Shown piece after piece: positions 5,274 through 18,618 of a DNA stretch of 64,000 nt. Positions within the stretch are counted from its first letter, which is position 1. Each line of letters starts with the position of its first letter. The position numbers and the translations under genes were made by a program. The notes below the pieces were generated by a model. The model searched no databases and was not told where the DNA came from. It was given only the letters and a program-made list of their open reading frames with translations. Origin of the DNA: a virus; IMG/VR virus record IMGVR_UViG_3300042346_000326, positions 33,381 through 97,380 of that record, one strand, 5' to 3'.

Positions 5274-5308
5274 GAAAAAGCCCCTCGTAATTGAGGGGCT
5301 TTCTCTTT
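5274..5308. terminator. bidirectional intrinsic terminator between convergent genes
   Basis: AAAAGCCCCTC-gtaatt-GAGGGGCTTT with A and T runs on either side. Confidence 0.8.
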
Positions 5309-5316
5309 TGGTATTG

Positions 5317-6420
5317 CTTTTGGTATGACTTTGCTTTTTAAGCCTTTACCTATTGCTTTACCTATTTAGTTCTTGCCTTTGCCTTTTGCTATTGCTTTGG
5401 CTTTTGGCTTGGTATCAGGGAACTTTGCTATCCATTCTTGGGTTCTAGCGGTCATTCCCTTCCACGCACTCCAATTCTCGCCCCCATTGCTCATGTGATA
5501 AGCAATCTGAGCGTTTACCACAGGGTTTAGCAGTTCGGCATTGGAATCCAATCCAAACTTCGCTCTTCTGTCTGCACCCAACTCTCCTAGCATGTTTATC
5601 TGAAACAAGCCGTATGAGTTGTCGCCTGTTGAGGCGTTCCCATTATGTGCGAGCGGTCTACCCGATGATTCTTTCTTCGCAACTGCCCATGCTTCTCGTA
5701 GGTCTTGCCCTTCGAACCCAACTGCTTTCAGTAGGGCTACTAGTTCTAGGTCACTCAACTTGTGAGAGTTCTCGAACTTGGCAAGCAACTTGTCGCTGGA
5801 CTCTTGCTCGACTTGGGCTTCCAACGCCTCTGCCTTTGTGGGGCTAAACGCTGGAGTGATTCTCCCTACTCCGAATGTTCCTGAAAGGAACGCGGTAGTT
5901 AGAATCAACACTACAAGCCGATTTTGTGTTTCTAGTTTCATCAGTTCTCCTAACCCAGAAAGTCATTGACAATTTCACTCGCCTTTGATTTCTGGTGTCG
6001 AACGCGGTGTAAGTAGCGTTCGGTAGTTTTTATGGATTGATGACCCAATCGCTCTTTTACTTCATGGACATCAACGCCGTTTTTAAGTAACTGCGTTGCG
6101 TTCGCATGTCGTAAGTCGTGAGTTCTTGGACTCCAACCCATGCCTGATTTGGCTATTGCTTTGTTCCAAATGGTTCTCCATGTATCTCGTGGCAGGTGAC
6201 TCGGTTCGTCAAGTATGACTTCACCCTTTTGGTATGACTTTGCTCTTTGCGACCTTCGATACTCTCGAACTATCGCTTTACAATCGTCACACCTACAAGA
6301 CCCACTTGCGTAAGCCCTGAGCGTGCCATGTTGGAACAGTTTTCCGTCTTTCACGAATGGTCGTAAAGACTTTGCTGTGCCACGAGAATCTTTAATTTTA
6401 CCTTTTGGTATGACTTTGCT
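5317..6420. repeat. three exact 19-nt direct repeats CTTTTGGTATGACTTTGCT
   Basis: Copies at 5317-5335, 6226-6244 and 6402-6420. Confidence 0.85.
5366..5941 (-). CDS. secreted or membrane-anchored lysozyme-like / lytic transglycosylase
   Basis: N-terminal hydrophobic segment; AVAKKESSG (catalytic E), SYGLFQIN, WSAW. Confidence 0.85.
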   Translation of the reverse strand: MKLETQNRLVVLILTTAFLSGTFGVGRITPAFSPTKAEALEAQVEQESSDKLLAKFENSHKLSDLELVALLKAVGFEGQDLREAWAVAKKESSGRPLAHNGNASTGDNSYGLFQINMLGELGADRRAKFGLDSNAELLNPVVNAQIAYHMSNGGENWSAWKGMTARTQEWIAKFPDTKPKAKAIAKGKGKN

Positions 6421-7227
6421 TCTCTCAAAGACTAACTCTTCTTTTGCTATTCGATTTGCCCTGACAAACGCCTTTATCTCTAGTAACAGGGCTTCGGGCA
6501 ATACAACTGAACGCTTGTAACCTGACTTAGTGGCATCTACGACTAAGAATCTACTTCCGTTATTGCGTGCTTTGCCTAACTCACTCACTCGCCTCTGTAT
6601 AAAAACTTCTTTTGTATTGAAATTAAAATCTTTTAATCGAATCTCTGTGGCTTCTCCGAAGCGTGCGCCCGAAGCAACAAGGAACTTCGCAAACAACTTC
6701 GCACCCTCTGTCGGTAAGTGACTAACAATCTTCTTGAACTCGTCAGGCTCGACCACATTGGAAATGTCCGATTTGCCTACTTTGACCTTTATGCCACGAG
6801 TCGGGTTGGTTTGGGCTATTTGCCCCTCTTGTAACCATTTGTAGAGAGAGCCTAGACACGCCTTGATTTGAGCCAGCGTTGCGCCACCGACCCCCTGAGC
6901 CTTCAATTCGCCCAAGAGTTCTCGGACTTCAAGCGTGGATACCTCAGAAACGCGTTTAGAGCCGATTTGAGGGGCTAGATACCTGCCCCAAAGGGATTCA
7001 TACCCCTTCTTCGTGATAGGCAGTAATTCGGCGGTTCTAAGCCATTTTTCGGCATACTCAGAAAGGGTCAAATTAGCCCTTGAAGGGCTCTCTGAGCCCC
7101 CATTCTCCATGCGTAGGGCTTGATACCGAGCCTCACTCTCGGAAGCCCAAGTGCCAGCAGACAGGCGTTTAGAGCCCTGCCTGTAATAGCCTGTGAAGCG
7201 TGAGCCACGCCTGACCACATACGCCAC
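5950..7227 (-). CDS. tyrosine recombinase/integrase with inserted Zn-binding module
   Basis: GARFGE (R), HDLRH, LGHQSIKTTERY (H, Y); SAM-like N domain; HGT..Y..CRCDDC insertion. Confidence 0.92.
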   Translation of the reverse strand: MAYVVRRGSRFTGYYRQGSKRLSAGTWASESEARYQALRMENGGSESPSRANLTLSEYAEKWLRTAELLPITKKGYESLWGRYLAPQIGSKRVSEVSTLEVRELLGELKAQGVGGATLAQIKACLGSLYKWLQEGQIAQTNPTRGIKVKVGKSDISNVVEPDEFKKIVSHLPTEGAKLFAKFLVASGARFGEATEIRLKDFNFNTKEVFIQRRVSELGKARNNGSRFLVVDATKSGYKRSVVLPEALLLEIKAFVRANRIAKEELVFERSKVIPKGKIKDSRGTAKSLRPFVKDGKLFQHGTLRAYASGSCRCDDCKAIVREYRRSQRAKSYQKGEVILDEPSHLPRDTWRTIWNKAIAKSGMGWSPRTHDLRHANATQLLKNGVDVHEVKERLGHQSIKTTERYLHRVRHQKSKASEIVNDFLG

Positions 7228-7229
7228 GA

Positions 7230-7324
7230 AAGCCCCCTCTACTCGTGAGTAACATTACTGATGAGTAAGTTACTGACGAGTAACATCTAGGTCAAATCCG
7301 AAGCCCCCTCTACTGATGAGTAAC
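7230..7324. promoter_or_regulatory. array of four palindromic (T)TACT-N4-AGTAA sites upstream of the recombinase
   Basis: Sites at 7240-7252, 7255-7268, 7270-7283, 7311-7323; longer repeat AAGCCCCCTCTACT..GAGTAAC at 7230 and 7301. Confidence 0.75.
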
Positions 7325-7333
7325 TTATGGGCA

Positions 7334-7370
7334 TAAAAAAGACCCCCATTCCTGATACGGAATGAGGGTC
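7334..7370 (-). terminator. intrinsic terminator of the minus-strand operon
   Basis: Minus strand GACCCTCATTCC-gtatca-GGAATGGGGGTC-TTTTTT. Confidence 0.8.
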
Positions 7371-7372
7371 GG

Positions 7373-7425
7373 TCACATAATGACTAAGTGCTTAGACGAG
7401 TTGAGTTATTCGCTTATGTGTTTTC
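7373..7425 (-). ncRNA. 3' arm of a split structured RNA (pairs with 15991-16513)
   Basis: Four contiguous segments are reverse-complementary to 16498-16513, 16136-16148, 16020-16028 and 15991-16007 in nested order. Confidence 0.7.
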
Positions 7426-7629
7426 GGATTCAGAAACTACTTCAAGTTCTGATTCTTTTCGATTCTGATTCCATTCTTCGATTGTTTTCTTTTTCCATAC
7501 AGGAGTTCTTCCTATGTATGTATCGGGTTCGGGAAGGGTGTTTCTTCTTCGATAAGTGTAAAGAGTTGAATACTTTAATCCTAACAACTCGCTTACTTGG
7601 TCGTTCGTTAGCCATTCGTTCTCACTCAC
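7414..7629 (-). CDS. AlpA/excisionase-like helix-turn-helix protein
   Basis: WLTNDQVSELLGLKYSTLYTY..LPEPD..GRTPVW. Confidence 0.8.
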   Translation of the reverse strand: MSENEWLTNDQVSELLGLKYSTLYTYRRRNTLPEPDTYIGRTPVWKKKTIEEWNQNRKESELEVVSESENT

Positions 7630-8069
7630 TTTGTTTCCTTTACATAAAGTTGTTGTGATTCATTGTTGAACCACAAGTAAGGTAAATCATTTTCAATGTT
7701 GAAGTGATAGTAAGTTGAATCTTTGCGATTCAGATTACTCTGATGTGAATTGTGAAAGTTTGGATTGCCAAACCACTTTGGTAATTCACAATCAGGATAC
7801 ATTGAATGAAGTGCTACAAACTTTTCACGCATTGTGTCTTTGTAACCACGAACAATCCATTCATCACAGATTGCGATTCCGTATTCACAAAGTAACTTCT
7901 CGTGACCGCGCCACAGATTCGTAGCAGGGTGATTGCGCCAACCTTTTGTTTCGCCACGAAGCGCACGAAGTATCTGCCACGCTTCTACGCGTTGCTTACC
8001 TAGTCGCTTGTAATCGAGAGCCTGAGCCGACTTAACAAAGTCGGGATAAGGCAGGAATGTATTAACCAT
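7626..8069 (-). CDS. pyrimidine-dimer DNA glycosylase / MSMEG_6728-like protein
   Basis: TFLPYPDF..LDYKRLGKQRVEAWQIL..WRNHPA..HQSNL.RKD. Confidence 0.85.
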   Translation of the reverse strand: MVNTFLPYPDFVKSAQALDYKRLGKQRVEAWQILRALRGETKGWRNHPATNLWRGHEKLLCEYGIAICDEWIVRGYKDTMREKFVALHSMYPDCELPKWFGNPNFHNSHQSNLNRKDSTYYHFNIENDLPYLWFNNESQQLYVKETK

Positions 8070-8236
8070 TAGAATCCGTCACTTTCTAAAGTAGAAACAG
8101 TTATAGAAGTTTTTATTGCGCTATCGTCTGAGTATTCAGCACTCTCTAACGCTTCATACGCTTCCTCTTCTGAGGTCGCATAAGCAACAACTGAATGTGT
8201 AGTTACAACTTCCACAATCGCTTTGTATCTAATCAT
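8069..8236 (-). CDS. small hypothetical protein (55 aa, MIRYKAIVEV...)
   Basis: Fills the gap with start/stop overlaps on both sides; GAAAGGAG RBS; not in the ORF track. Confidence 0.65.
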   Translation of the reverse strand: MIRYKAIVEVVTTHSVVAYATSEEEAYEALESAEYSDDSAIKTSITVSTLESDGF

Positions 8237-8562
8237 TGGGATTTACTCCTTTCGGCTTTGCGGATTAGTTTGTGTCGTTCTGACTCAGTAGTGCCACCCC
8301 AAATCCCATAACGAATCCGATTCGTTACCGCAAAGGAAAGACACTTAGTTGTTTCGTGGCATTGAGAACATAAAGATTTCGCCATTGAAATCTTTTCAAT
8401 GTCTTCGGGGATTGTTTGGCCACTAGGAAACCAAATCTCAGGGTCGTTCTGTTGGCAGGGTGTCTTGTCATAGTCACGAGCCATTGGCACTTTGAGATTG
8501 AAAACAGGATTGTTAGTCGCTCTCTTTGGTTGTGCCGAAGGTAATCGTTTGATGTAAGTCAT
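8233..8562 (-). CDS. whiB: WhiB-family transcriptional regulator
   Basis: C..DPEIWFP..AKSLCSQC..C..GIWGG; four conserved Cys. Confidence 0.92.
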   Translation of the reverse strand: MTYIKRLPSAQPKRATNNPVFNLKVPMARDYDKTPCQQNDPEIWFPSGQTIPEDIEKISMAKSLCSQCHETTKCLSFAVTNRIRYGIWGGTTESERHKLIRKAERSKSQ

Positions 8563-9215
8563 GCGTTTATCTCCTTTCGTTGCTCTTTGTTAGTGAATTG
8601 GGGAAGTTCATTATTGTTTTGGTGGTCGTTGTCGTTACAATCTGAACAGATTGTCTGTTGCGTAGTCTGCTCACAACCACATTCGCAATCACAACTTCCA
8701 CAATCTTCACAACCTTCATAACATTCTCCCCATTTCTGTATGCGCCATTCACAATTCATCTCGCCTTCTTCTCGTGAAACTAACTTTCCTTTTTCGTATT
8801 CAAGTTCTCCGTAATAACCCATTCCCTCTTCTTGGTATTTAAGAGTTATAGAAGTGAATGGATACTTCTCCGCAATCGCTTCAACGATAGGAGTTGGCGG
8901 TGACCATGCGGTATTAAATGAGATTGAAACTTCTGTTGGAGATTCAATTCGCAATTCAACATCACAGGCGTTCCACTTAGTTCCCCACTTGGCGCAACGA
9001 AAGTTATACCAATCCTCGTATCCGTATTTATCTTTCATCTCTTGTGGGTTAGTTCTATTTGGCGAACTTGAATCAAGAAGTTCTTGTGGAGTAGGAATAA
9101 TCCGATTGAAGTCGAATGGTTGGTCTGAATCGTTTGTAATGCCCTGAATCAACTTTGTAAATTGTTTTGGGGTCTTTGTTGTAATAGTTAAATCGTTAGA
9201 ACACCAATTTGGCAT
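8559..9215 (-). CDS. DUF1281/YubB ferredoxin-like protein with Cys-rich tail
   Basis: MPNWC start with GAAAGGAG RBS; WY..R..WGTKWNA, FNTAWSPP; start reassigned from 9389. Confidence 0.75.
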   Translation of the reverse strand: MPNWCSNDLTITTKTPKQFTKLIQGITNDSDQPFDFNRIIPTPQELLDSSSPNRTNPQEMKDKYGYEDWYNFRCAKWGTKWNACDVELRIESPTEVSISFNTAWSPPTPIVEAIAEKYPFTSITLKYQEEGMGYYGELEYEKGKLVSREEGEMNCEWRIQKWGECYEGCEDCGSCDCECGCEQTTQQTICSDCNDNDHQNNNELPQFTNKEQRKEINA

Positions 9216-9219
9216 AACT

Positions 9220-9385
9220 AACTCCTTTCTTTGTAATAGGAATCGAATGAGGGCAGATACAACTCGCAACGCGTGGTCGAAAGGAGTTCTGTAAGCCCCA
9301 CGAGTGGTCATGGTTGCTCTTAGCGTTGATAGGTCGTAGGGAATGAAAGAACCTACAAGGTCAATCGCTTTGACCCTCACTCGAT
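9220..9385 (-). promoter_or_regulatory. structured intergenic RNA element with anti-SD loop
   Basis: Closing helix 9242-9253/9374-9385 with G-U on the minus strand; 9279-9288 complementary to the RBS at 9220-9229. Confidence 0.55.
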
Positions 9386-9389
9386 ACAT

Positions 9390-9941
9390 TTATTTAGTTA
9401 ATTGTTTGTGAGCGTGGTATCTCCAATTACGAGAACGCTTCACAGTAATAATGTCGTGGCAATTATGACAACGCACTACACACTTTTGTATTTCTTTTTT
9501 AATCTTGTGTAATGGTTGTATGTCACGAATCATGTCAGCGATTGTGTGTTCCTTTTCGCCCCTTGTATGTAGGTGGTCAAAGGTAAGTGAGCGAATGTCG
9601 GAATCTAAAGTCTTTATCACTTGGTTAATTGTCGAAGTTGGAACTTTGCCAGCAAGTAACTTCTTAATGCGAAGTTTCTTTTTGGCGCAATCAACGCAGG
9701 TGTGTTTAGCAAAGTAATTCGCCAAGAACTTATGAATCTCTTTCTTACGGATTCTTCGGTTCTTATACATTCTTTGTAATTGAGCCTTAGTGTTCTTTCG
9801 ATAGTAAGCCTTCTGTCGCTCGCTTTGGCAGGGTCGGCAATAGGGTTGTGTATTGCCGACAACGCCACGAGTCGAACGCTTACGATTGAAAGCGGTAAGT
9901 GATTTACGAGTTTTACAATGACTACAAACTTTTGTTTTCAT
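9390..9941 (-). CDS. HNH-type endonuclease with Zn fingers
   Basis: CSHC..CRPC, CVDC, LTFDH..KCVVRCHNCH. Confidence 0.75.
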   Translation of the reverse strand: MKTKVCSHCKTRKSLTAFNRKRSTRGVVGNTQPYCRPCQSERQKAYYRKNTKAQLQRMYKNRRIRKKEIHKFLANYFAKHTCVDCAKKKLRIKKLLAGKVPTSTINQVIKTLDSDIRSLTFDHLHTRGEKEHTIADMIRDIQPLHKIKKEIQKCVVRCHNCHDIITVKRSRNWRYHAHKQLTK

Positions 9942-10504
9942 TTATTAACCTTTCTCAATCTAAAGTTCCACCTTTGTCTAGCCATTCAGCGAAACAAATT
10001 GGGCAACCTAAACTGATTGCTTTTTCTGCTGGATACTCGTGACCTCTAAAACATTTTTTATTAGTCATAACTCTCCTAACTAAGAACTTTCTGAACGCAG
10101 TTAAAGCAGAACCATAAAACAGATTCGTTATACGAATCCTTTATGTCTTTGCCTGATGTAGTCAATCCTTCCTGATTACAAGAATCGCAAAGCGATAATT
10201 GGTCAGGTGTAACTCTGATTATTTCTACATAACCCACAGTTATTCCCCCTCTCCTTCAATCATTGAGAATGAAGTTCCAATAGCGACCCCGATAAGAGTC
10301 GCTATTGTTACTAATACAAAGAATGTAATCACTTTGTCACCTCATCTATCATCTTTTGGCATGAGCCATAGCCCAAGAAGTTTGCGTAGGGTTTATCGCC
10401 CACATAACAAACATCACGAGTTATGTATGACATAAAGATAAGTAGAAGAGTGGCAGGAATTATTACAAGAACAATCCAACCTCTTCTAGTTAGTTTTGTT
10501 CCAC

Positions 10505-11146
10505 TCATGGCGTTACCTCTTTCGGATACAAGTTAGTCAATGGCAAAGTTTTGTAATGAACATCATTAGCGTTGCTAGGAGTCATGTAAGAAACAATGAA
10601 TCTGCTTCCTGTCGTTGCGACAATCTTGCCTAGTCGTGTTCTACCAAAGGCACGAATCGCAACAACATCACCAATACCAGCATTGAATACATGACTATCA
10701 TCATGGCGAATACTTTGACGATAAGTGATTGCCAACGCTCGCAATTCATCTTTGATTGAATACATAGAAGCAAGTAAGTCAATCTTCTTACGAACTTTCT
10801 TTAGAGCAATTTCAAGATTGTGTGAGCCCCAACCTGTTGTAACGCACCCCTGAGAAAGCCAAGCGAGATTGTATAAATGGTCAAAGAAACCGCCGACTTC
10901 CCAAACGAATGATTCGTATTTAGAAGTTGTGACTCCGTTTGTTGGAGTTGAGAAGTCACGCTTCCACACAACGATTGCGAATCCTTTATAGATTTCACAA
11001 TGGTAATCAGAATCAACGAGCCGACCATGATTCAACCAATTTCCGTCAATTATCTTTCTCTTGAATCTCTCTAAATAAAAAGATTCATCATTTGGAATTG
11101 GCGTTGCGGTAACAACGCCATTCTCTTCTGTAATTGTGTGTGCCAT
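10505..11146 (-). CDS. hypothetical protein
   Basis: 213-aa ORF coupled to the upstream gene. Confidence 0.6.
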   Translation of the reverse strand: MAHTITEENGVVTATPIPNDESFYLERFKRKIIDGNWLNHGRLVDSDYHCEIYKGFAIVVWKRDFSTPTNGVTTSKYESFVWEVGGFFDHLYNLAWLSQGCVTTGWGSHNLEIALKKVRKKIDLLASMYSIKDELRALAITYRQSIRHDDSHVFNAGIGDVVAIRAFGRTRLGKIVATTGSRFIVSYMTPSNANDVHYKTLPLTNLYPKEVTP

Positions 11147-11754
11147 TACGCCACCAAGTCCTTTGCTTCGAGAACCTTCTCGATAAGAGTTTCCATTAGG
11201 GAGAGTTCAACTTGAACAACCGCAAGAGTTTTGTATTCATTATTAACTCTTACATTATTTGTATCGAATTGAACTGATTGTGGAGTTACACGATTGCCAA
11301 GAATCCCTGTCAATGTGTCACGCAAAGAAGTTTCCATACGCTCTTTGTTTGCCTGAGCAATTCGGCGTTCCTCTTCACGCTTTAATTGTTCCTGCTCTGC
11401 TTTCTTGCGTTCTTCTTCCTCTTGGCGTTTCTCTTCATTCCAGCGTGGTTCAAGAGTTGCCCACAACGCAACAATGTCTTGTGGTCGTGCGAGCCAATAC
11501 ATGTCTTGATTGTTTTCCTTAGCAACAACAAGATAGCCAACTGCTCGCTCTCCCTGTTTTGCTTTAACGAATCCTGAATCATCAGGTTGATGTGACCTAA
11601 AAACTTTGTATTCATACTTTGTTAATGACACAAGGTTTGCTTTTACAACATCATTCTTACGAACTCTGTCGGGGTCTTTCTTATCGCGTGATGAGTATTG
11701 CCATGACGGAATGATTGCGTAGTCATGTCCAGCAATTAAATCGGAGAACTTCAT
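11146..11754 (-). CDS. hypothetical protein with coiled coil
   Basis: Start MKFSDL after AGAAAGAGAG RBS; central E/K/R-rich helix. Confidence 0.65.
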   Translation of the reverse strand: MKFSDLIAGHDYAIIPSWQYSSRDKKDPDRVRKNDVVKANLVSLTKYEYKVFRSHQPDDSGFVKAKQGERAVGYLVVAKENNQDMYWLARPQDIVALWATLEPRWNEEKRQEEEERKKAEQEQLKREEERRIAQANKERMETSLRDTLTGILGNRVTPQSVQFDTNNVRVNNEYKTLAVVQVELSLMETLIEKVLEAKDLVA

Positions 11755-11861
11755 TTGTATTACTCTCTTTCTTATTTGTATTTGTTTATTTGTATTTGGA
11801 ATGTGGGGCGTATAAATCTCGTAGATACGCCCCACACTTGTCACCTAGAGAGTGACATTTG

Positions 11862-13790
11862 TTAGTTGGATACAACTCTTCTGCCAATCGCATTACGAAC
11901 GATTGTGCGAGCCATACCAACAAGGTCGAATGGATTACGAATCACCGCACCAACTTCGCAGAAGTGAGCCTTCTCGTGAGTTAGTTCAACTGATTCGTGT
12001 TGGTCAGGAATGTATGCGAACGCAGTTAATACGCCAGCATTATTCATCTTCTTGATTTCAGGGTCACACAAGTTTGTGTCACTCCATTCTCCGTCAGTAA
12101 TTGCGAAGAAAAGTTTGACAGGCTTTTGTGACTCAGCAAGAAGTTTCGTTGAGTATTTGACCGCATACTCAGCAAGAGTGCCACCTGTTGTTCCACAATC
12201 TCTAACAGAATTGTTCGCCCTATCAGAAGCGCGATACAAAGTTGTTGTATGAGAATTGAAAACAATTACAGAGCAGTTAGCACCGATTCTGTCGAGTGCG
12301 AACTTAATCGCATACATGGCGCGATAAGCGTTGCTCGCTTTATCGCCACTCATAGAACCTGAATTGTCGAGAGCGATTACACATTCAATCTCTGTAACAT
12401 CTTCTCTGCCCTCACTCCATTGGTCGAATACTGTGTCTAAATCATCACCACGCATAAAGCGTGAAGCGTTTAATTTGCCACGAGATTCGTATTTATCCCA
12501 AGCAGGGTCGAACTTTGCTTTCAATCTCTCTAACTCACGAGCGAATGAAAGTGAAGCCGATTGTGTTTTGGAATCAGGAAGAACAGAACGATAGCGAGCG
12601 AGTTCAGGCTCTTCTAGTTTGTTAGTAGATAATGCTGATTGACCATTAACAATACGAATCGTGTTCTCAATCTCCTGACGAACAGAATCCTTATCAAGAA
12701 TGTCTGTAATAGCAGTATTAAGAATTGCGATTGTTTTGGTTGTGTCATTACCAGCACTATTACTAGGTGAATCAGATTGCGATTGAGATTGCGATTGAGA
12801 TTGTGAATCAGATTTAGATTGCGATTTAGTTTCGTCAATCGTGGTCTTATCTAATTGTTTAGCGCGTTCGCTATCGCGTGTCTGTTGCTTGGCAGGTTGT
12901 GGGCGCGAGTTGATAGAAGACTCAATGCCTTCTGTTGGTCGCTCACCATGACCCATTGGGCAATTAAGAATGATGTCACCTTTGCCATTTGGATTATTGC
13001 TAGGTGTTGATTCACCTAACAATTCTTTTTCCCAATCAGCAAGGTCAGAGTAATCACGAACATTCTGTTCGCCACTCTCACCTTGTTCGCCACCATTACC
13101 GCCTTCACCATGTCCTGACTTTGGAAGTAAGTTGTAGAAGCGTTCAATAAGTTTCTTACCGAGTTCTGTATCGCGTGGATAAATAAGTGTTCTGTATTCA
13201 TCAACGATTTCAGTTATCTCAGCAACTAATTCCTGATAAGGAAATAGTCGTAGCGATTCTTCACGAATCTCTAGCGGTAAGTATTTGCGCCCACGAAGTA
13301 ATGGATAAGAACTCTTAAATGCGTTCTCATCATTAACAAAGTAAGTCGCAATAGTTACTACGAACCAATCAACAGTTGAAGGGAATCGTGAAGTAAATAA
13401 GGTTTCAATACGCTGGTCTTCTAACGCATTAAACGCCTTGAAGTAATCATTCTCTTTGACCCAAGTAACAATCTCTGAGCCTTGTCGTGGAGTATAAAGA
13501 ATGTGTGACAACTCGTGGAAATTAAGACCACGAAGATTCGCAACACTTACGCCATTGTTAAGGTCGTTGATTAAACGAGAGTTAAGAGTGATGTCACTCG
13601 CACCTGACCAAGCAGGTGCTTCAAGTGAAGCGTGTTCTACTTTGACAGTAATCGGTCTGAAAGTCAGAGCCGAATTAACGCGAGCAAAGTAACGAGTCAA
13701 TCGCTCAACGCGTTGGCGATTGCGCTCATCTTCTTCCTCTTGGATTTTGCGAGCCCGACTAGCGAACTCTTCAATGAATGGAAGTGTCAT
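11862..13790 (-). CDS. VWA-domain protein with N-terminal HExxH metallopeptidase-like domain
   Basis: FHELSHILYT, FNALEDQRIE, MIDAS DNSGS, GGT, TDGE. Confidence 0.85.
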   Translation of the reverse strand: MTLPFIEEFASRARKIQEEEDERNRQRVERLTRYFARVNSALTFRPITVKVEHASLEAPAWSGASDITLNSRLINDLNNGVSVANLRGLNFHELSHILYTPRQGSEIVTWVKENDYFKAFNALEDQRIETLFTSRFPSTVDWFVVTIATYFVNDENAFKSSYPLLRGRKYLPLEIREESLRLFPYQELVAEITEIVDEYRTLIYPRDTELGKKLIERFYNLLPKSGHGEGGNGGEQGESGEQNVRDYSDLADWEKELLGESTPSNNPNGKGDIILNCPMGHGERPTEGIESSINSRPQPAKQQTRDSERAKQLDKTTIDETKSQSKSDSQSQSQSQSQSDSPSNSAGNDTTKTIAILNTAITDILDKDSVRQEIENTIRIVNGQSALSTNKLEEPELARYRSVLPDSKTQSASLSFARELERLKAKFDPAWDKYESRGKLNASRFMRGDDLDTVFDQWSEGREDVTEIECVIALDNSGSMSGDKASNAYRAMYAIKFALDRIGANCSVIVFNSHTTTLYRASDRANNSVRDCGTTGGTLAEYAVKYSTKLLAESQKPVKLFFAITDGEWSDTNLCDPEIKKMNNAGVLTAFAYIPDQHESVELTHEKAHFCEVGAVIRNPFDLVGMARTIVRNAIGRRVVSN

Positions 13791-13796
13791 GGTTTC

Positions 13797-15158
13797 CTAA
13801 CCAATTAGTGATTCGTTATTAACAACATTTGTAATGCCTAAATCTTCTTTTAGATTGTAAGCATTTGCTTCTAACAACATACGAACCGCAGGGCGTTCGT
13901 TTTGGTCGAAGTTATTAACAAAGACTTCGCAAGCGAAATCAAAGTTAAGACCTGTCGCTAACTTCTCAAAGGTTTTGAGAATACGAGTTGAAACAGGTGT
14001 ATCGAAGATTGTGTTGCTATCAGTAATAGCAATTTCGTCAGCACCACGAGAGCGTGACCTCATGCCATAAGCAAGTTCGAGTAATGATTCTGATTTAAGA
14101 ATCTTCTTCTCAATGCTCTTGTCGTAGTTGTAGTTCAACTTAATCTCGAAGCGGTCTTTCCATGCTTCGTTAAGTAATGAAGTGCCACGATAATTTGGAT
14201 TCATGTCAGCGATAATCAACAAGTTGTCATTTGCTTTTACAACTTCGTTGCCATTCTCCATGATTGTAATTGAACGCCGATAATCAAGTAGTGGCATTAG
14301 GAATTGCTGAACATTCTTAGCGAGTGTATTTACTTCACCGATAAGAAGAACACCACCATTACGAACCAATCGTGTAACCGCGCCATCAACCCACGATAAA
14401 GAACCATTAGCGTTTGGAACATAACCGCCAACAATTTGTGTGTAATCAAGAGCAGAGTTAGAAGGAATCGCAAAGTATTGAACGCCAAGTAATGAAGCAA
14501 TCCACATTGAAGATGAAGTCTTACCTGTTCCAGCGTCACCATAAAGAAGAACATTTAGTTTGTTCTTCAATGCGAACTGATACATAGTGAGTTCATCAAC
14601 ATCACCAGCGAATGTGCGTTGAATGTAGTGCGAGAACTCTTCAATCTTTGGAATGAATAGCGAACGCTCTTCAATCGCAACCGATTGAGCAACCTGTGTA
14701 GTAACAGGTTGAATACGGATAACTGAATCGTGAGATACAACAGAGCCTTTAGTAGCGCGTTGCCCACGATTGTCGGTGTAGAACTTTCCTAACTCAGAAG
14801 GATTGTTCTTTACAGTATCGAATAGTGAATCAGCGACAACGATTGCTTCATCACCGAGTGTTTGGTCTGAGAGTGAGTGCTTACGAATTAGTTTCTGTAT
14901 TAGCACTCTTGGAAAACCATTGTCATTGAAATCTTCAATGTCATTAGGTGAAACAGGAATTGCGACAGGCTCGCCAATTAGTTGCTCGCCACTATCGAAT
15001 TGAAACGCGCCCTCTTGCCACGCGTTCTGTTTGCCTTGCTTACCATTTGTGAATCTCCAACGAGTAACAACAGAGTCGTTGAAGTTTGCGATAAATACCT
15101 GACGAGTAACTGATACATCAGCAGGTTGTGACACGATAAGTGTTCCGTAGTTTGTCAT
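13797..15158 (-). CDS. MoxR/CbbQ-type AAA+ ATPase
   Basis: Walker A GDAGTGKT, Walker B LLIGEVN, MNPNYRGT..LNEAWKDRF, VSTR; adjacent to the VWA partner. Confidence 0.88.
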   Translation of the reverse strand: MTNYGTLIVSQPADVSVTRQVFIANFNDSVVTRWRFTNGKQGKQNAWQEGAFQFDSGEQLIGEPVAIPVSPNDIEDFNDNGFPRVLIQKLIRKHSLSDQTLGDEAIVVADSLFDTVKNNPSELGKFYTDNRGQRATKGSVVSHDSVIRIQPVTTQVAQSVAIEERSLFIPKIEEFSHYIQRTFAGDVDELTMYQFALKNKLNVLLYGDAGTGKTSSSMWIASLLGVQYFAIPSNSALDYTQIVGGYVPNANGSLSWVDGAVTRLVRNGGVLLIGEVNTLAKNVQQFLMPLLDYRRSITIMENGNEVVKANDNLLIIADMNPNYRGTSLLNEAWKDRFEIKLNYNYDKSIEKKILKSESLLELAYGMRSRSRGADEIAITDSNTIFDTPVSTRILKTFEKLATGLNFDFACEVFVNNFDQNERPAVRMLLEANAYNLKEDLGITNVVNNESLIG

Positions 15159-15187
15159 TTCTTTTCTTTCTCTAGGTGATTGGTTTG

Positions 15188-15472
15188 TTAGTTGTATTCG
15201 TTGATAGGTGTATCGGGATTGCTGATTACTGATTGAGATTTATTTTCTACATCAGTAAGTGTTTCAATGAGTGACTCGAATTGTTCTTCATTAACAATTC
15301 TTAGTCTGATTACTTCATTCATCTTTTCGATAACAGATTCGAGAGTTTCAATAAAGCCGACAGGTGGCTCGCTTCCATTCTCTACTACTTCTTTTGTTGA
15401 TTGTGCGATTCCCATTAGCCCCATTTGTAAGAAGCCAAGTTCATCTTTTGTGAAGTCGTATAACGGATTCAT
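15188..15472 (-). CDS. hypothetical acidic protein
   Basis: 94-aa ORF with GAAAGGA RBS. Confidence 0.6.
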   Translation of the reverse strand: MNPLYDFTKDELGFLQMGLMGIAQSTKEVVENGSEPPVGFIETLESVIEKMNEVIRLRIVNEEQFESLIETLTDVENKSQSVISNPDTPINEYN

Positions 15473-15557
15473 TTGTTTTCCTTTCGTGGTTCTAACTCAT
15501 TGTGAATCAAGCAGAACCATGACTCTTTGTCGTATGCGACAAGTGTGTGTTCAGTAT

Positions 15558-15680
15558 TCATTTAACGAGCCTTTCTTTGTGGTCTTTACGGACATGATTG
15601 GTAAGAGTTTCAGAAGCGAAACCGCTACGAACCTCTAGTTCTTTGTCGCATACAGGGCATTGAACAATTCTTTGCGCCAT
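15558..15680 (-). CDS. small C2H2 zinc-finger protein (40 aa)
   Basis: MAQRIVQCPVCDKELEVRSGFASETLTNHVRKDH; AAAGGAG RBS; not in the ORF track. Confidence 0.65.
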   Translation of the reverse strand: MAQRIVQCPVCDKELEVRSGFASETLTNHVRKDHKERLVK

Positions 15681-15737
15681 GTAAGTAACTCCTTTTCTCT
15701 GTAATGGGTATTCGGTATTAAGTTGTTTATTCAGTTG

Positions 15738-15911
15738 TTATTTAGTTGTATCTCGATAAGGAGTCCATGTAGTCCAGCGAGATTCGCCTTCTACATTTAT
15801 CCGTAACTTAACTAGGTCGTTGCGAACAGGAACTATCTCTTCAATGATTCCTGTAATGCGTGACTTAGTAGAAGTGAATAAGTCACCGATTGCGTATTTA
15901 TCTTTTTCCAT
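15738..15911 (-). CDS. small SH3-like hypothetical protein (57 aa), first gene of the minus operon
   Basis: MEKDKYAIGDLFTSTKSRITGIIEEI...; GGAAAGAGG RBS; not in the ORF track. Confidence 0.65.
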   Translation of the reverse strand: MEKDKYAIGDLFTSTKSRITGIIEEIVPVRNDLVKLRINVEGESRWTTWTPYRDTTK

Positions 15912-15990
15912 TGTGTTGCCTCTTTCCTTATGTAACCACCGCGATTGTCACCGAATCTCATTCACAGAATCGGTATCGGTGACAATCACA

Positions 15991-16518
15991 GAAAACACAT
16001 AAGCGAAATTACTAAGTATGAATAACTCGTTTATTCAATTACTGTCATTGTTCTTGGAACAGATTGGTTACTGTCGGCACTAACTATTGTTAGCAATCCA
16101 TAGGTAATGAATAACTGAGTTACACAACTTTCCGTAACTCGTCTAAGCCTTCTGCTATTCACAATAACTTTCGTTAATGTTGATTACGATTTATTAGGAG
16201 TGCGCTCTGCTCGCTTGTAACTTTTGTCGCTCGTAATTCGATACGCGGTAAGTTTGAGTATCGAATTAGTTATCGCGGATACAAGGTCTTCGCATAGAAG
16301 TCACTTCGTGCGTTCCGTTATTCGTAATTTAATTTAGTCGCGTAATGCGTAAATCATTTTGCCAATTTAATTTTGAGTATCACTCGCGGTCTTATGACCT
16401 ATTAAGTAAATTGAATAACTGCCGATAGTAAATTGGGATAATCACAATTACTAAATCGTCATAACAGTTTTTGCGTAATGAATCTAAATCGCAGATTCTT
16501 AGTCACTATGTAATTTTC
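15991..16518 (-). ncRNA. large (~520 nt) multi-helix structured RNA candidate
   Basis: No ORF; many local and long-range helices; UAAC-GAAA-GUUA tetraloop hairpin on the minus strand; pairs with 7373-7425. Confidence 0.75.
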
Positions 16519-17491
16519 TAAGTTCGAGTGGGTTCTTTGGAGAGCCTCTCGGCTCTACCTCTGACCACGCCCCAAGTATGCCATAGATTGACCGACTCAG
16601 TTTGCCACCCCTATTAAGAGCGTGTTTATGGGGCTTTTAGCCCCTAGAGCCCCTGCCCCCCAAGTAACCCACCTGCTATCACCACCGCTTCAGAAGAGTT
16701 AGTTAGTGAATGAGCGTGAGCCCCCACATAACTAATCGCGCCAAAGAGTTTTTCTTTTCAGTAATGACTAATACAAAGATAGTAATAGATAGATAGAAGT
16801 TAATAATAGAGATAGATAAATACCCACATAAGTAACTCGGTAACTACACTCAATTAGTCAATAATCAAATAAACACATAACAAAGTTTGTAATAGCAAAT
16901 AATTAAGTAACTTCTGACCTTCTGCTGTCGTATCTAAGCGTAGAAGAGTAAAAAGTAAGTAACTCCGCCGTTTAATTCTGGAAGTTACTTACTGACTAAC
17001 TCAGATAGCCCGTAACTAACTAGCCACCACCACCGCCATAACCGCCACCTGATACATCTTGTCGTTACAAGGAGAAGTGACTCATCTACCTACTAGGGAA
17101 TAACTGAGTTAGTCATAGTGATAGAAGATAATTGAAACAATTAGTAATAGATACATAACAACACATAACTAATAACGCGTTGCGTTACTAATGCGTGATT
17201 ATGTGATAACAACTGACTAGGTGACTCGTTGGCTTGGTGGTATCCGCACAGACCATGTTGCTAAATAAACAGTAGCCGAAGTGTTGTCACCAAAGTTGTC
17301 ACCAAGTTATTTGTTACACCTGATAACAACGCATGAGTTGAACAACAACCACCTGATTAGTAGTCAGGTGGTAGGTGTTCTCATGTGTAACTAACAACAA
17401 CCCCCCCACCATTAAACGGAAAACGCCAAATGAACAGCCAGGTGAGACACATGGTTGAGGGGTTGGGGCCAGGGCAGTAGCCAAAAGACGG

Positions 17492-17761
17492 CTAGTGGCC
17501 CTCGTCAATGGTCCACGCCTTATGGGTAGGAGAGTCCTTTATCATCTTTACGGTCTTATAGCCTGTAAGCCATTTAAGGGCATCCTTTAACGCCTGGTCT
17601 GATGTCTTAGATTGCCCTTTCATATACGTATAAGGCTGCTGTATCTCTGGATTAGTGGGGTATTCATGCCAACAGTCAGTTCTGATTCCCCAATGCCACA
17701 CAGATTTACGGTTTGTAACGAGGATTGTAAATTGGCCATTCACACATTTAGTGTAGTACAT
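17492..17761 (-). CDS. hypothetical protein (MYYTKC...)
   Basis: Isolated ORF between two 19-nt direct repeats. Confidence 0.45.
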   Translation of the reverse strand: MYYTKCVNGQFTILVTNRKSVWHWGIRTDCWHEYPTNPEIQQPYTYMKGQSKTSDQALKDALKWLTGYKTVKMIKDSPTHKAWTIDEGH

Positions 17762-17812
17762 GCTAGTGCGGTTGACGATGTGGGGCCAAGGCAGTAGCCG
17801 TAAACTAGCCAC

Positions 17813-18118
17813 ATGGCAGACTTTCTTAGCAGAGTGCAGTTCAAAAATCACTCTACTCCCTATGAGGACAAGATTGGGGCCCATTTAGGCAAGCAGCAGG
17901 TTGGATGGCTAGACCTTGATAAAGATACGGGTGTAGTTAATGAGGTATATGTTAAGGAGCAGCACCAGGGTAAGGGTATCGCCACAGGCATGTGGAAGCA
18001 CGCCCAGGAGTCTGGCTTAAATCCAAGACATTCTGATACTCGTTCCGAGTCTGGAGATGCTTGGGCGCAATCTCTTTATCAAAAGGGACTGGCTCCAGAA
18101 CCAGAGAGTATGGAATAA
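17813..18118 (+). CDS. GNAT acetyltransferase
   Basis: VYVKEQHQGKGIATGMW acetyl-CoA motif A; N-terminal FLSRVQF. Confidence 0.8.
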   Translation: MADFLSRVQFKNHSTPYEDKIGAHLGKQQVGWLDLDKDTGVVNEVYVKEQHQGKGIATGMWKHAQESGLNPRHSDTRSESGDAWAQSLYQKGLAPEPESME

Positions 18119-18444
18119 TGAGCAATCTAGGCCCTCAATTCGACCCCTTACAAGAGGCTAGGAGTATCAAGAACAATAAGAGCCGCCTAACTAGGACCCT
18201 AAAGGCCGTAGGACTAGAGCCACGGAGACGATTTAAGTCAAGAAGCGGAAAGGTATCGATGCAATCTGCAGGATTGGTATACACCGCTACAGATAGCAAC
18301 AGTACAACGGTCCACTACGCCACTGGTAGTCCTGGAGATAACAACGTGGAACCATATCATCAGCGGATACTAAAGGCCCTTATCGATGCCGACTACAACG
18401 CTTCAATGAAGGATGGCAAAATTCACGTACAGCACTCTATGTGA
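18118..18444 (+). CDS. hypothetical protein with N-terminal NLGPQF tag
   Basis: ATG overlaps the upstream TAA (TAATG); start reassigned from 18061. Confidence 0.65.
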   Translation: MSNLGPQFDPLQEARSIKNNKSRLTRTLKAVGLEPRRRFKSRSGKVSMQSAGLVYTATDSNSTTVHYATGSPGDNNVEPYHQRILKALIDADYNASMKDGKIHVQHSM

Positions 18445-18456
18445 TAGGCTCTGTCT

Positions 18457-18618
18457 ATGAGCATCGAGAAGCGAATCGGCAAGGTATGGATATATTTTGG
18501 TTGGAACTTTAGAAGAGTTGCATTTGGAATCTCAGTAGACCGCTTTGAGATAGCGTTTGATTTTCTATTCTGGTACTTCACAATTGAATTTTGGCCAATA
18601 TTTTCCAGTAACGACTAG
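18457..18618 (+). CDS. small aromatic/hydrophobic protein (53 aa)
   Basis: MSIEKRIGKVWIYFGWNF...; TGA-TAGGCT -10 ends 6 nt upstream (leaderless). Confidence 0.55.
   Translation: MSIEKRIGKVWIYFGWNFRRVAFGISVDRFEIAFDFLFWYFTIEFWPIFSSND

Follow-up and report, generated by a model that had tools for sequence, protein, structure and literature searches.

A large structured RNA family heading a phage AAA_5/VWA/WhiB operon

A non-coding RNA of ~590 nt was located on the minus strand of a 64,000-nucleotide window, the whole stretch of viral DNA analysed here (bases 33381-97380 of IMG/VR record IMGVR_UViG_3300042346_000326). It is read from about 16499 to 15912, where it reaches the ribosome-binding site of the gene that opens an 8.6-kb leftward operon, and its structure, strand, position and link to this one operon are conserved among relatives. 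A large structured RNA of about this size, possibly of a new class, had been proposed for 15991-16518 by a first-pass annotation of the DNA, and the comparison of sequences bears this out: a new family of large structured RNA, to which no described family could be matched, is well supported. As the RNA always heads the same operon, the best reading is that it acts in cis as a 5' untranslated leader controlling the expression of this operon, to which we assign a probability of roughly 0.6.

Structure and strand of the leader

The leader lies within a 1.4-kb gap (15912-17314) in which no stop-to-stop frame longer than 50 aa was found on either strand, confirming that the stretch is free of ORFs; this check for hidden coding used the standard code only, and the flanking genes read normally under table 11. 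To the left of the gap is the minus-strand operon and to the right are plus-strand GNAT genes, with the minimum of the cumulative GC skew at this strand switch (16-17 kb). In blastn and a first alignment, 15912-16190 and 17195-17490 were kept in all relatives, 16190-16560 could be aligned only within subgroups, and blocks at 16565-17125 were kept only in close kin. The leader can be divided into two parts, a conserved 3' domain of ~270 nt and a variable 5' domain.

The relatives comprised 23 loci fetched via the AAA_5 protein of the operon, together with extra viral and metagenome contigs recovered when the most conserved core sequence was used as the pattern in two scans (14 of the 44 metagenome pattern matches were chance matches). 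The element was found by nhmmer in 77 loci, 43 of them distinct, and 37 distinct sequences were aligned in the operon direction (alignment A5). The A5 consensus contains 61 pairs, arranged in 12 helices, and 92.7% of its cells are paired; in 40 of the 61 pairs both sides have changed. Covariation was 0.449 compared with 0.211 in shuffles, a value reached by none of 500 shuffles, and it dropped to 0.05-0.10 when the partners were slid by 1-3 columns.

The 3' domain (15929-16181, minus strand) begins with a hairpin with a GAAA loop (16180-16173/16168-16161) and a short helix (16156-16154/16148-16146). A long-range helix (16137-16126/16018-16009) closes a multi-helix core, which consists of five short helices (16109-16103/16043-16024, 16097-16094/16050-16047, 16093-16091/16082-16080, 16079-16077/16053-16051 and 16075-16071/16062-16057) together with joining nucleotides and an 8-nt hairpin loop that are both invariant. 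An outer helix (16001-15995/15935-15929) then encloses a long terminal hairpin with a conserved loop (15994-15981/15950-15936). The conserved structure extends to 15929, past the left edge of 15991 that had been drawn before, and this last helix directly adjoins the Shine-Dalgarno sequence AAGGAAAGAGG (15928-15918), which was read from the sequence together with the ATG start codon of the first ORF (15911-15909). In the window, the outermost pairs of the last helix extend into the first bases of the Shine-Dalgarno, and several relatives have a separate anti-SD/SD hairpin between the RNA and the first ORF. The consensus structure for the window's group leaves the Shine-Dalgarno unsequestered, and no conserved, mutually exclusive pairing that gates a terminator or ribosome-binding site was demonstrated.

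The strand of the RNA had to be corrected. RNAalifold gave -66.9 kcal/mol for the minus strand compared with -36.8 kcal/mol for the plus strand on the 37-sequence alignment, and -30.9 compared with -13.3 on smaller alignments. Among the consensus-pair cells, 250 were G-U and 40 were A-C, and six pairs were G-U in most sequences; some bias is expected as the count was made on a structure predicted for the minus strand, yet such G-U pairs are not available to the plus strand. Based on the energies and this wobble asymmetry, the minus strand is the folded one.

The same observations bear on whether the conservation could instead reflect an element acting as DNA, such as hairpins in single-stranded DNA or protein-binding palindromes of an origin, operator or divergent control region, or a leader transcript that primes replication, as ColE1 RNA II does. 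The location at the strand switch and skew minimum would suit such an element, as would the adjoining block at 17195-17490, with its reiterated words and a sequence that is conserved while its structure hardly is. However, the strong strand asymmetry of the wobble pairs, the hairpins that vary in length with full compensatory replacement among relatives, and the constant orientation and spacing relative to the first ribosome-binding site are all better explained by RNA than by sites in duplex DNA, making a DNA-level role very improbable.

The variable 5' domain (16182-16495, minus strand) was aligned in 10 sequences of the window's wider subgroup (alignment A7). Here 94.1% of cells were paired, 14 of the 35 pairs were changed on both sides, and covariation was 0.335 compared with 0.128 in shuffles (0 of 500 reaching it), falling to 0.03-0.07 when slid. 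The support from these sequences is similar in kind to that for the 3' domain and weaker, and the plus and minus strands score alike. The predicted helices are a closing helix that joins the first bases after the upstream motif with the end of the domain (16494-16491/16210-16207), two further helices (16312-16309/16294-16291 and 16277-16266/16236-16228), and an 11-bp hairpin (16268-16258/16244-16234) with its extension (16286-16278/16221-16212). The distance between the upstream motif and the 3' domain is 97-301 nt in relatives; the higher-GC relatives and a single AT-rich one lack the 5' domain, and there the motif lies directly against the core. From its absence in these compact relatives, the 5' domain is therefore an optional module. 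Compact RNAs with the motif directly at the core and the same operon downstream were seen in L028, L032, L037, L090 and L065, and in the higher-GC compact forms the core is closed by a 14-bp helix.

The inverted repeats listed in the first-pass annotation are present in the sequence (16234-16244/16258-16268, 11 of 11; 16031-16040/16409-16418, 10 of 10; 16183-16196/16449-16462, 86%), and two of its eight helices were kept in relatives: the 11-bp helix at 16234-16268 with its extension (16212-16221/16278-16286) in A7, and the GAAA hairpin (16161-16180) in A5. The long-range and pseudoknot helices fared less well. Helices 16031/16409, 16186/16452 and 16108/16154 are absent from the comparative structure, the pseudoknot formed by 16068/16420 crossing 16031/16409 is not backed by the comparative data, and helix 16117-16123/16134-16140 competes with the covarying long-range helix 16126-16137/16009-16018. 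Some of the long-range helices do appear in a single-sequence fold of the whole leader, and they are kept only within a trio of near relatives, in which one pair is compensated and one broken (judged by eye in A5). Folding of the whole leader (15900-16509, minus strand) gave z = -4.5 with 20 shuffles. For the originally annotated interval, 15991-16518, stability was only modestly better than that of shuffles (plus strand, z = -2.1; minus strand, z = -3.2).

The repeated word TGAATAACT was found at 16019, 16108 and 16412, as had been noted, with one more copy elsewhere. Across the window 0.79 copies would be expected, and four copies were reached in 3 of 100 shuffles. The minus-strand reading of 16412-16424, CGGCAGTTATTCA, is invariant in three window-type 5' domains while its flanks vary, and it is complementary to the core segments 16075-16079 and 16030-16036. 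In these three sequences, pairing of CGGCAGTTATTCA could produce an alternative conformer that invades the core.

Immediately upstream of the 5' domain is motif m, AAATTACATAGTGACTAAGAA (16496-16515, minus strand), which shows 93-96% identity in distant relatives although its flanks cannot be aligned. It includes CATAGT (16510-16505), a -10-like hexamer of the TAnnnT type that reads TATAGT or AATAGT in other sequences, and from this hexamer we infer that motif m is a promoter; alternatively, it could be the extreme 5' end of the RNA. The exact motif occurs once in the genome, and a consensus scan called no sigma-70-type promoter in 15500-18200. A role as a general phage promoter for a T7-like polymerase was rejected, the motif being unique apart from a copy in the operon trailer described below, and pairing of the motif with the 5' strand of the last outer helix was rejected as it is not kept in the AAATAG relatives (by eye). 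Sigma-70-type matches are depleted in this part of the genome, with 0 compared with 6.2 expected in 15500-18200 and 11 compared with 21 in 5300-16600, which fits a host with different promoter rules.

The phage and the operon downstream

The virus record is complete, with 97,380 bp and terminal repeats. The genome encodes a terminase, portal, major head protein, tail sheath, ribonucleotide reductase and tyrosine integrase, and the source virus is therefore a temperate myovirus of ~97 kb. Its hosts are probably freshwater actinobacteria, because it carries a WhiB gene and relatives of its AAA_5 gene are found in Gordonia, Microbacterium and Brevibacterium phages. The relatives were drawn from IMG/VR and metagenome contigs, and the single RNA run that contained the stretch is riverine. 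A queuine tRNA-ribosyltransferase-like gene is also present at 888-2390 (PHROG 887), which could indicate 7-deazaguanine modification of the phage DNA.

The leader heads an operon that is transcribed leftwards on the minus strand and starts with an ORF of 57 aa (15738-15911). This is followed by further small ORFs, an AAA_5 ATPase (13797-15158) and a VWA-domain protein (11862-13790), both identified by Pfam, and then by WhiB, a pyrimidine-dimer glycosylase and, as the last gene, an excisionase-type HTH protein (7414-7629). The last gene matched HTH_17 at 1.3e-7, and the AlpA and putative-excisionase families more weakly. An intrinsic terminator of the operon lies at 7341-7370 (minus strand), with a 12-bp stem containing 7 G-C pairs followed by T6.

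A small ORF lies 3' of the RNA in all 16 relatives examined, but it is not the same ORF: the small first ORFs belong to at least two families with no detectable similarity to each other, and members of both had no Pfam or PHROG match. Where loci had been recovered solely by the RNA pattern, AAA_5, VWA and in most cases WhiB were found downstream in the same orientation. Because the first ORF varies while the RNA and the operon stay, the RNA belongs to the operon and not to its first gene, and the retention of the RNA in lineages that differ in this ORF argues against a control tied to that protein.

Transcription of the leader is weakly supported by an exact 258-nt contig (16231-16488, depth 2.9) from the riverine metatranscriptome, which carries neither strand nor transcript ends and could result from DNA carry-over. 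It was the only contig of that run on 15000-18500, and as this is a single RNA run, the uncovered parts of the region are no evidence of silence.

Comparison with known RNAs and possible modes of action

At the gathering score, Rfam 15 gave no match in the 64-kb window and none in nine relatives, and at E<=10 only miRNA-level noise was obtained on 15600-18000. Membership in ROOL, GOLLD, OLE, HEARO, group I or II introns, RNase P or tmRNA is therefore not supported, and ARAGORN likewise found no tmRNA and no tRNA gene in the window. Known riboswitch and T-box classes were rejected on the same grounds, as no Rfam class model matched in the window or the nine relatives. A blastn search of 15900-17500 against 50,697 phage records gave no match. 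The core pattern matched 11 times in 185,579 prokaryote genomes, where nhmmer similarity was confined to the pattern itself; as these matches are only at chance level, the family appears to be confined to phage contigs.

Large phage-borne RNAs such as ROOL and GOLLD are suspected of acting as free-standing RNAs. The leader shares with ROOL (RF03087) and GOLLD (RF01998) its size range, its many helices and its presence in phages. Unlike them, it has no covariance-model match, is not a free-standing gene and abuts a ribosome-binding site; GOLLD is in addition often found beside tRNA genes, whereas the window has none. The first-pass annotation had implied a free-standing ornate RNA, but the position between the -10-like motif and the first Shine-Dalgarno in every relative is the anatomy of a 5' leader.

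A variant of the free-standing idea is that processing of the transcript releases the leader or its 5' domain, which accumulates as a stable RNA and acts in trans or assembles with itself, for instance to form a scaffold or to serve as a decoy for a host defence. Its large size, many helices and invariant loops, and the confinement of the family to phage contigs, are in keeping with this, as is the location of the sole RNA-library contig from the 3.5 kb examined, which falls within the leader. At a depth of 2.9, however, the RNA library is uninformative on transcript ends, and the RNA has no terminator or defined 3' end of its own, running straight into the ribosome-binding site. Together with a 5' domain that is dispensable in many relatives and the lack of an Rfam match to ROOL or GOLLD, these points make a stable RNA of this kind unlikely.

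The likeness to cis-regulatory 5' leaders, including riboswitches, T-boxes, and ribosomal-protein and other protein-binding leaders, is closer. The RNA is on the coding strand, extends from a promoter-like motif to the first ribosome-binding site, has a multi-helix core with invariant unpaired nucleotides and covarying helices up to the Shine-Dalgarno, and is fixed to one operon. The general features of a 5' leader, a position on the coding strand (downstream of a promoter that is itself presumed) and a structure conserved by compensatory change, are thus found here. It differs from such leaders in having no Rfam family, a dispensable 5' domain and a first ORF that differs between lineages, and ~590 nt is unusually long compared with a riboswitch-type element.

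As a cis-acting leader, the RNA could work as follows, with the promoter, the transcript ends, the bound factor and every regulatory step being what we infer from the features above. Transcription would start near 16499-16497, just downstream of CATAGT, and proceed leftwards. The nascent RNA would fold first into the variable 5' domain, closed by the helix joining its ends, and then into the 3' domain with its GAAA hairpin, the multi-helix core closed by the long-range helix, and the long terminal hairpin, whose outer helix would end at the ribosome-binding site of the first ORF. The core with its invariant unpaired nucleotides could be bound by a factor, which might be a protein, RNA polymerase, the ribosome or a small ligand. 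Binding of this factor would set the expression of the operon through access to the first ribosome-binding site, and/or through the stability or elongation of the 8.6-kb transcript. Feedback or end protection could then follow in close kin, from pairing of the 53 nt that precede the terminator with four segments of the leader.

Alternatively, the leader could be a processive antitermination RNA. By binding the transcribing polymerase in cis, it would let the enzyme pass pause and termination signals within the 8.6-kb operon, and perhaps also the terminator at 7341-7370, so that the integrase gene is reached. In HK022 put RNA and Bacillus EAR, the nascent RNA acts on the transcribing polymerase in cis and causes antitermination, and the leader resembles them as a nascent structured RNA just downstream of a promoter, here a presumed one, at the start of a long phage or operon transcript. 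An RNA tied to the operon and not to its variable first ORF would be expected of such a mechanism, and there are a few weak terminator-like hairpins inside the operon on the minus strand as well as a same-strand integrase gene after the terminator. A PF00940 search detected no phage RNA polymerase, which adds weakly to this at most, being uninformative in itself as the control genomes likewise gave no match. Against antitermination, the leader is several times larger than the known antitermination RNAs and matches no Rfam family, the internal terminator-like sites are weak and known from the window only, and read-through is predicted from position. We therefore regard antitermination as improbable, and the reading of a cis-acting leader that controls expression is preferred.

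The family was found in uncultured freshwater phages, a widespread group whose WhiB gene makes actinobacteria the probable hosts; to our knowledge, very few regulatory RNAs have been described from such phages. The genomic position of the RNA is well defined, at the start of an AAA_5/VWA/WhiB/Xis operon, and the depth of covariation suffices for a covariance model. Should sensing of a factor or looping of the transcript prove to be the role of the leader, this would reveal how these phages time an operon ending in an excision/integration module.

The operon trailer and neighbouring non-coding DNA

The operon ends in a 3' trailer of 53 nt (7373-7425, minus strand) that contains the stop codon of the excisionase-type gene and is complementary to four leader segments in nested order. 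The first trailer segment is complementary to motif m over 16 nt (G-U pairs included), the second to 16136-16148 over 13 nt, the third to 16020-16028 over 9 nt and the fourth to 15991-16007 over 17 nt; in the last case, 7409-7425 and 15991-16007 form a perfect inverted repeat (17 of 17). The plus-strand reading of the trailer gives the motif and pieces of the leader in condensed, inverted form, and the consensus scan calls a promoter on that strand. After the trailer come the strong terminator, short repeats and the tyrosine integrase gene (5950-7227, minus strand). The repeats at 7230-7330, between the terminator and the integrase gene, are direct and inverted (AAGCCCCCTCTACT..TGAGTAAC twice) and are candidates for attP arm sites.

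The same arrangement was found in G001 and G002, two related complete or nearly complete genomes, and in each of the three close genomes the trailer fits its own leader best, including a shared two-base insertion. A second copy was not found by pattern in the more distant G003 and G005; G006 and G007 are fragments that do not cover the trailer region. The three genomes fit three readings of this sequence alike: the trailer could pair as RNA with the leader inside the operon transcript, it could belong to a small RNA from the operon 3' end, or it could reflect concerted evolution of an inverted duplicate promoter.

Pairing inside the transcript would have the larger consequences. The two ends of a ~9-kb mRNA would pair through ~55 nt in four nested segments, looping out the 5' domain and the core, and the ring-closed transcript could serve as a retroregulation or end-protection device whose ends co-evolve in register. 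We put this forward tentatively, as a possibility with the odds against it. If it is true, only transcripts from the leader promoter would carry a duplex beside the xis stop codon and the terminator that precedes attP/int.

Lambda sib retroregulation and 3'-UTR-derived small RNAs are the known systems with which the 3' end of a phage transcript can be compared. As in lambda sib, the trailer is at the far 3' end of a phage transcript beside xis, attP and int, and duplex RNA would be possible only in transcripts of particular origin. Unlike lambda sib, the partner is the 5' leader of its own operon, 8.6 kb away and in four nested segments, and the arrangement is known from the sequences of three close genomes. 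The trailer with its terminator also resembles a small RNA of the 3'-UTR-derived type.

On the other side of the leader, the block at 17195-17490 (~295 nt) is kept in all relatives and contains a C7 run and reiterated words, with CACCTGAT present three times including a palindrome, GTCACCAA in tandem and CAGTAGCC at both ends. It was considered as a second structured RNA and rejected: 86.0% of cells were paired compared with 82.8% when shuffled, pairs changed on both sides were no commoner than in shuffles (238 of 500 reached the observed count), and covariation was barely above that of shuffles. The block is probably a DNA-level element, for instance an origin, or a promoter or operator that serves the rightward genes. 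Further non-coding blocks at 16565-17125 are present in close kin only, and they include ~85 nt (about 16715-16800) that are nearly invariant and have no reading frame.

Relative to L004 and L006, the window has a 317-bp insertion at 17483-17799. A 30-nt direct repeat borders this insertion (17453-17482 and 17770-17799), and most of a minus-strand ORF that belongs to no family (17492-17884, 130 aa) lies within it. A relative of this ORF is located elsewhere in L021, and the insertion is possibly a small mobile gene. The word GGCAGTAGCC occurs exactly at 17473, 17790 and 18659, each time on the plus strand and before rightward genes. With up to one mismatch allowed, there are 8 such sites in the window compared with 2.2 expected, making GGCAGTAGCC a candidate promoter or regulator box.
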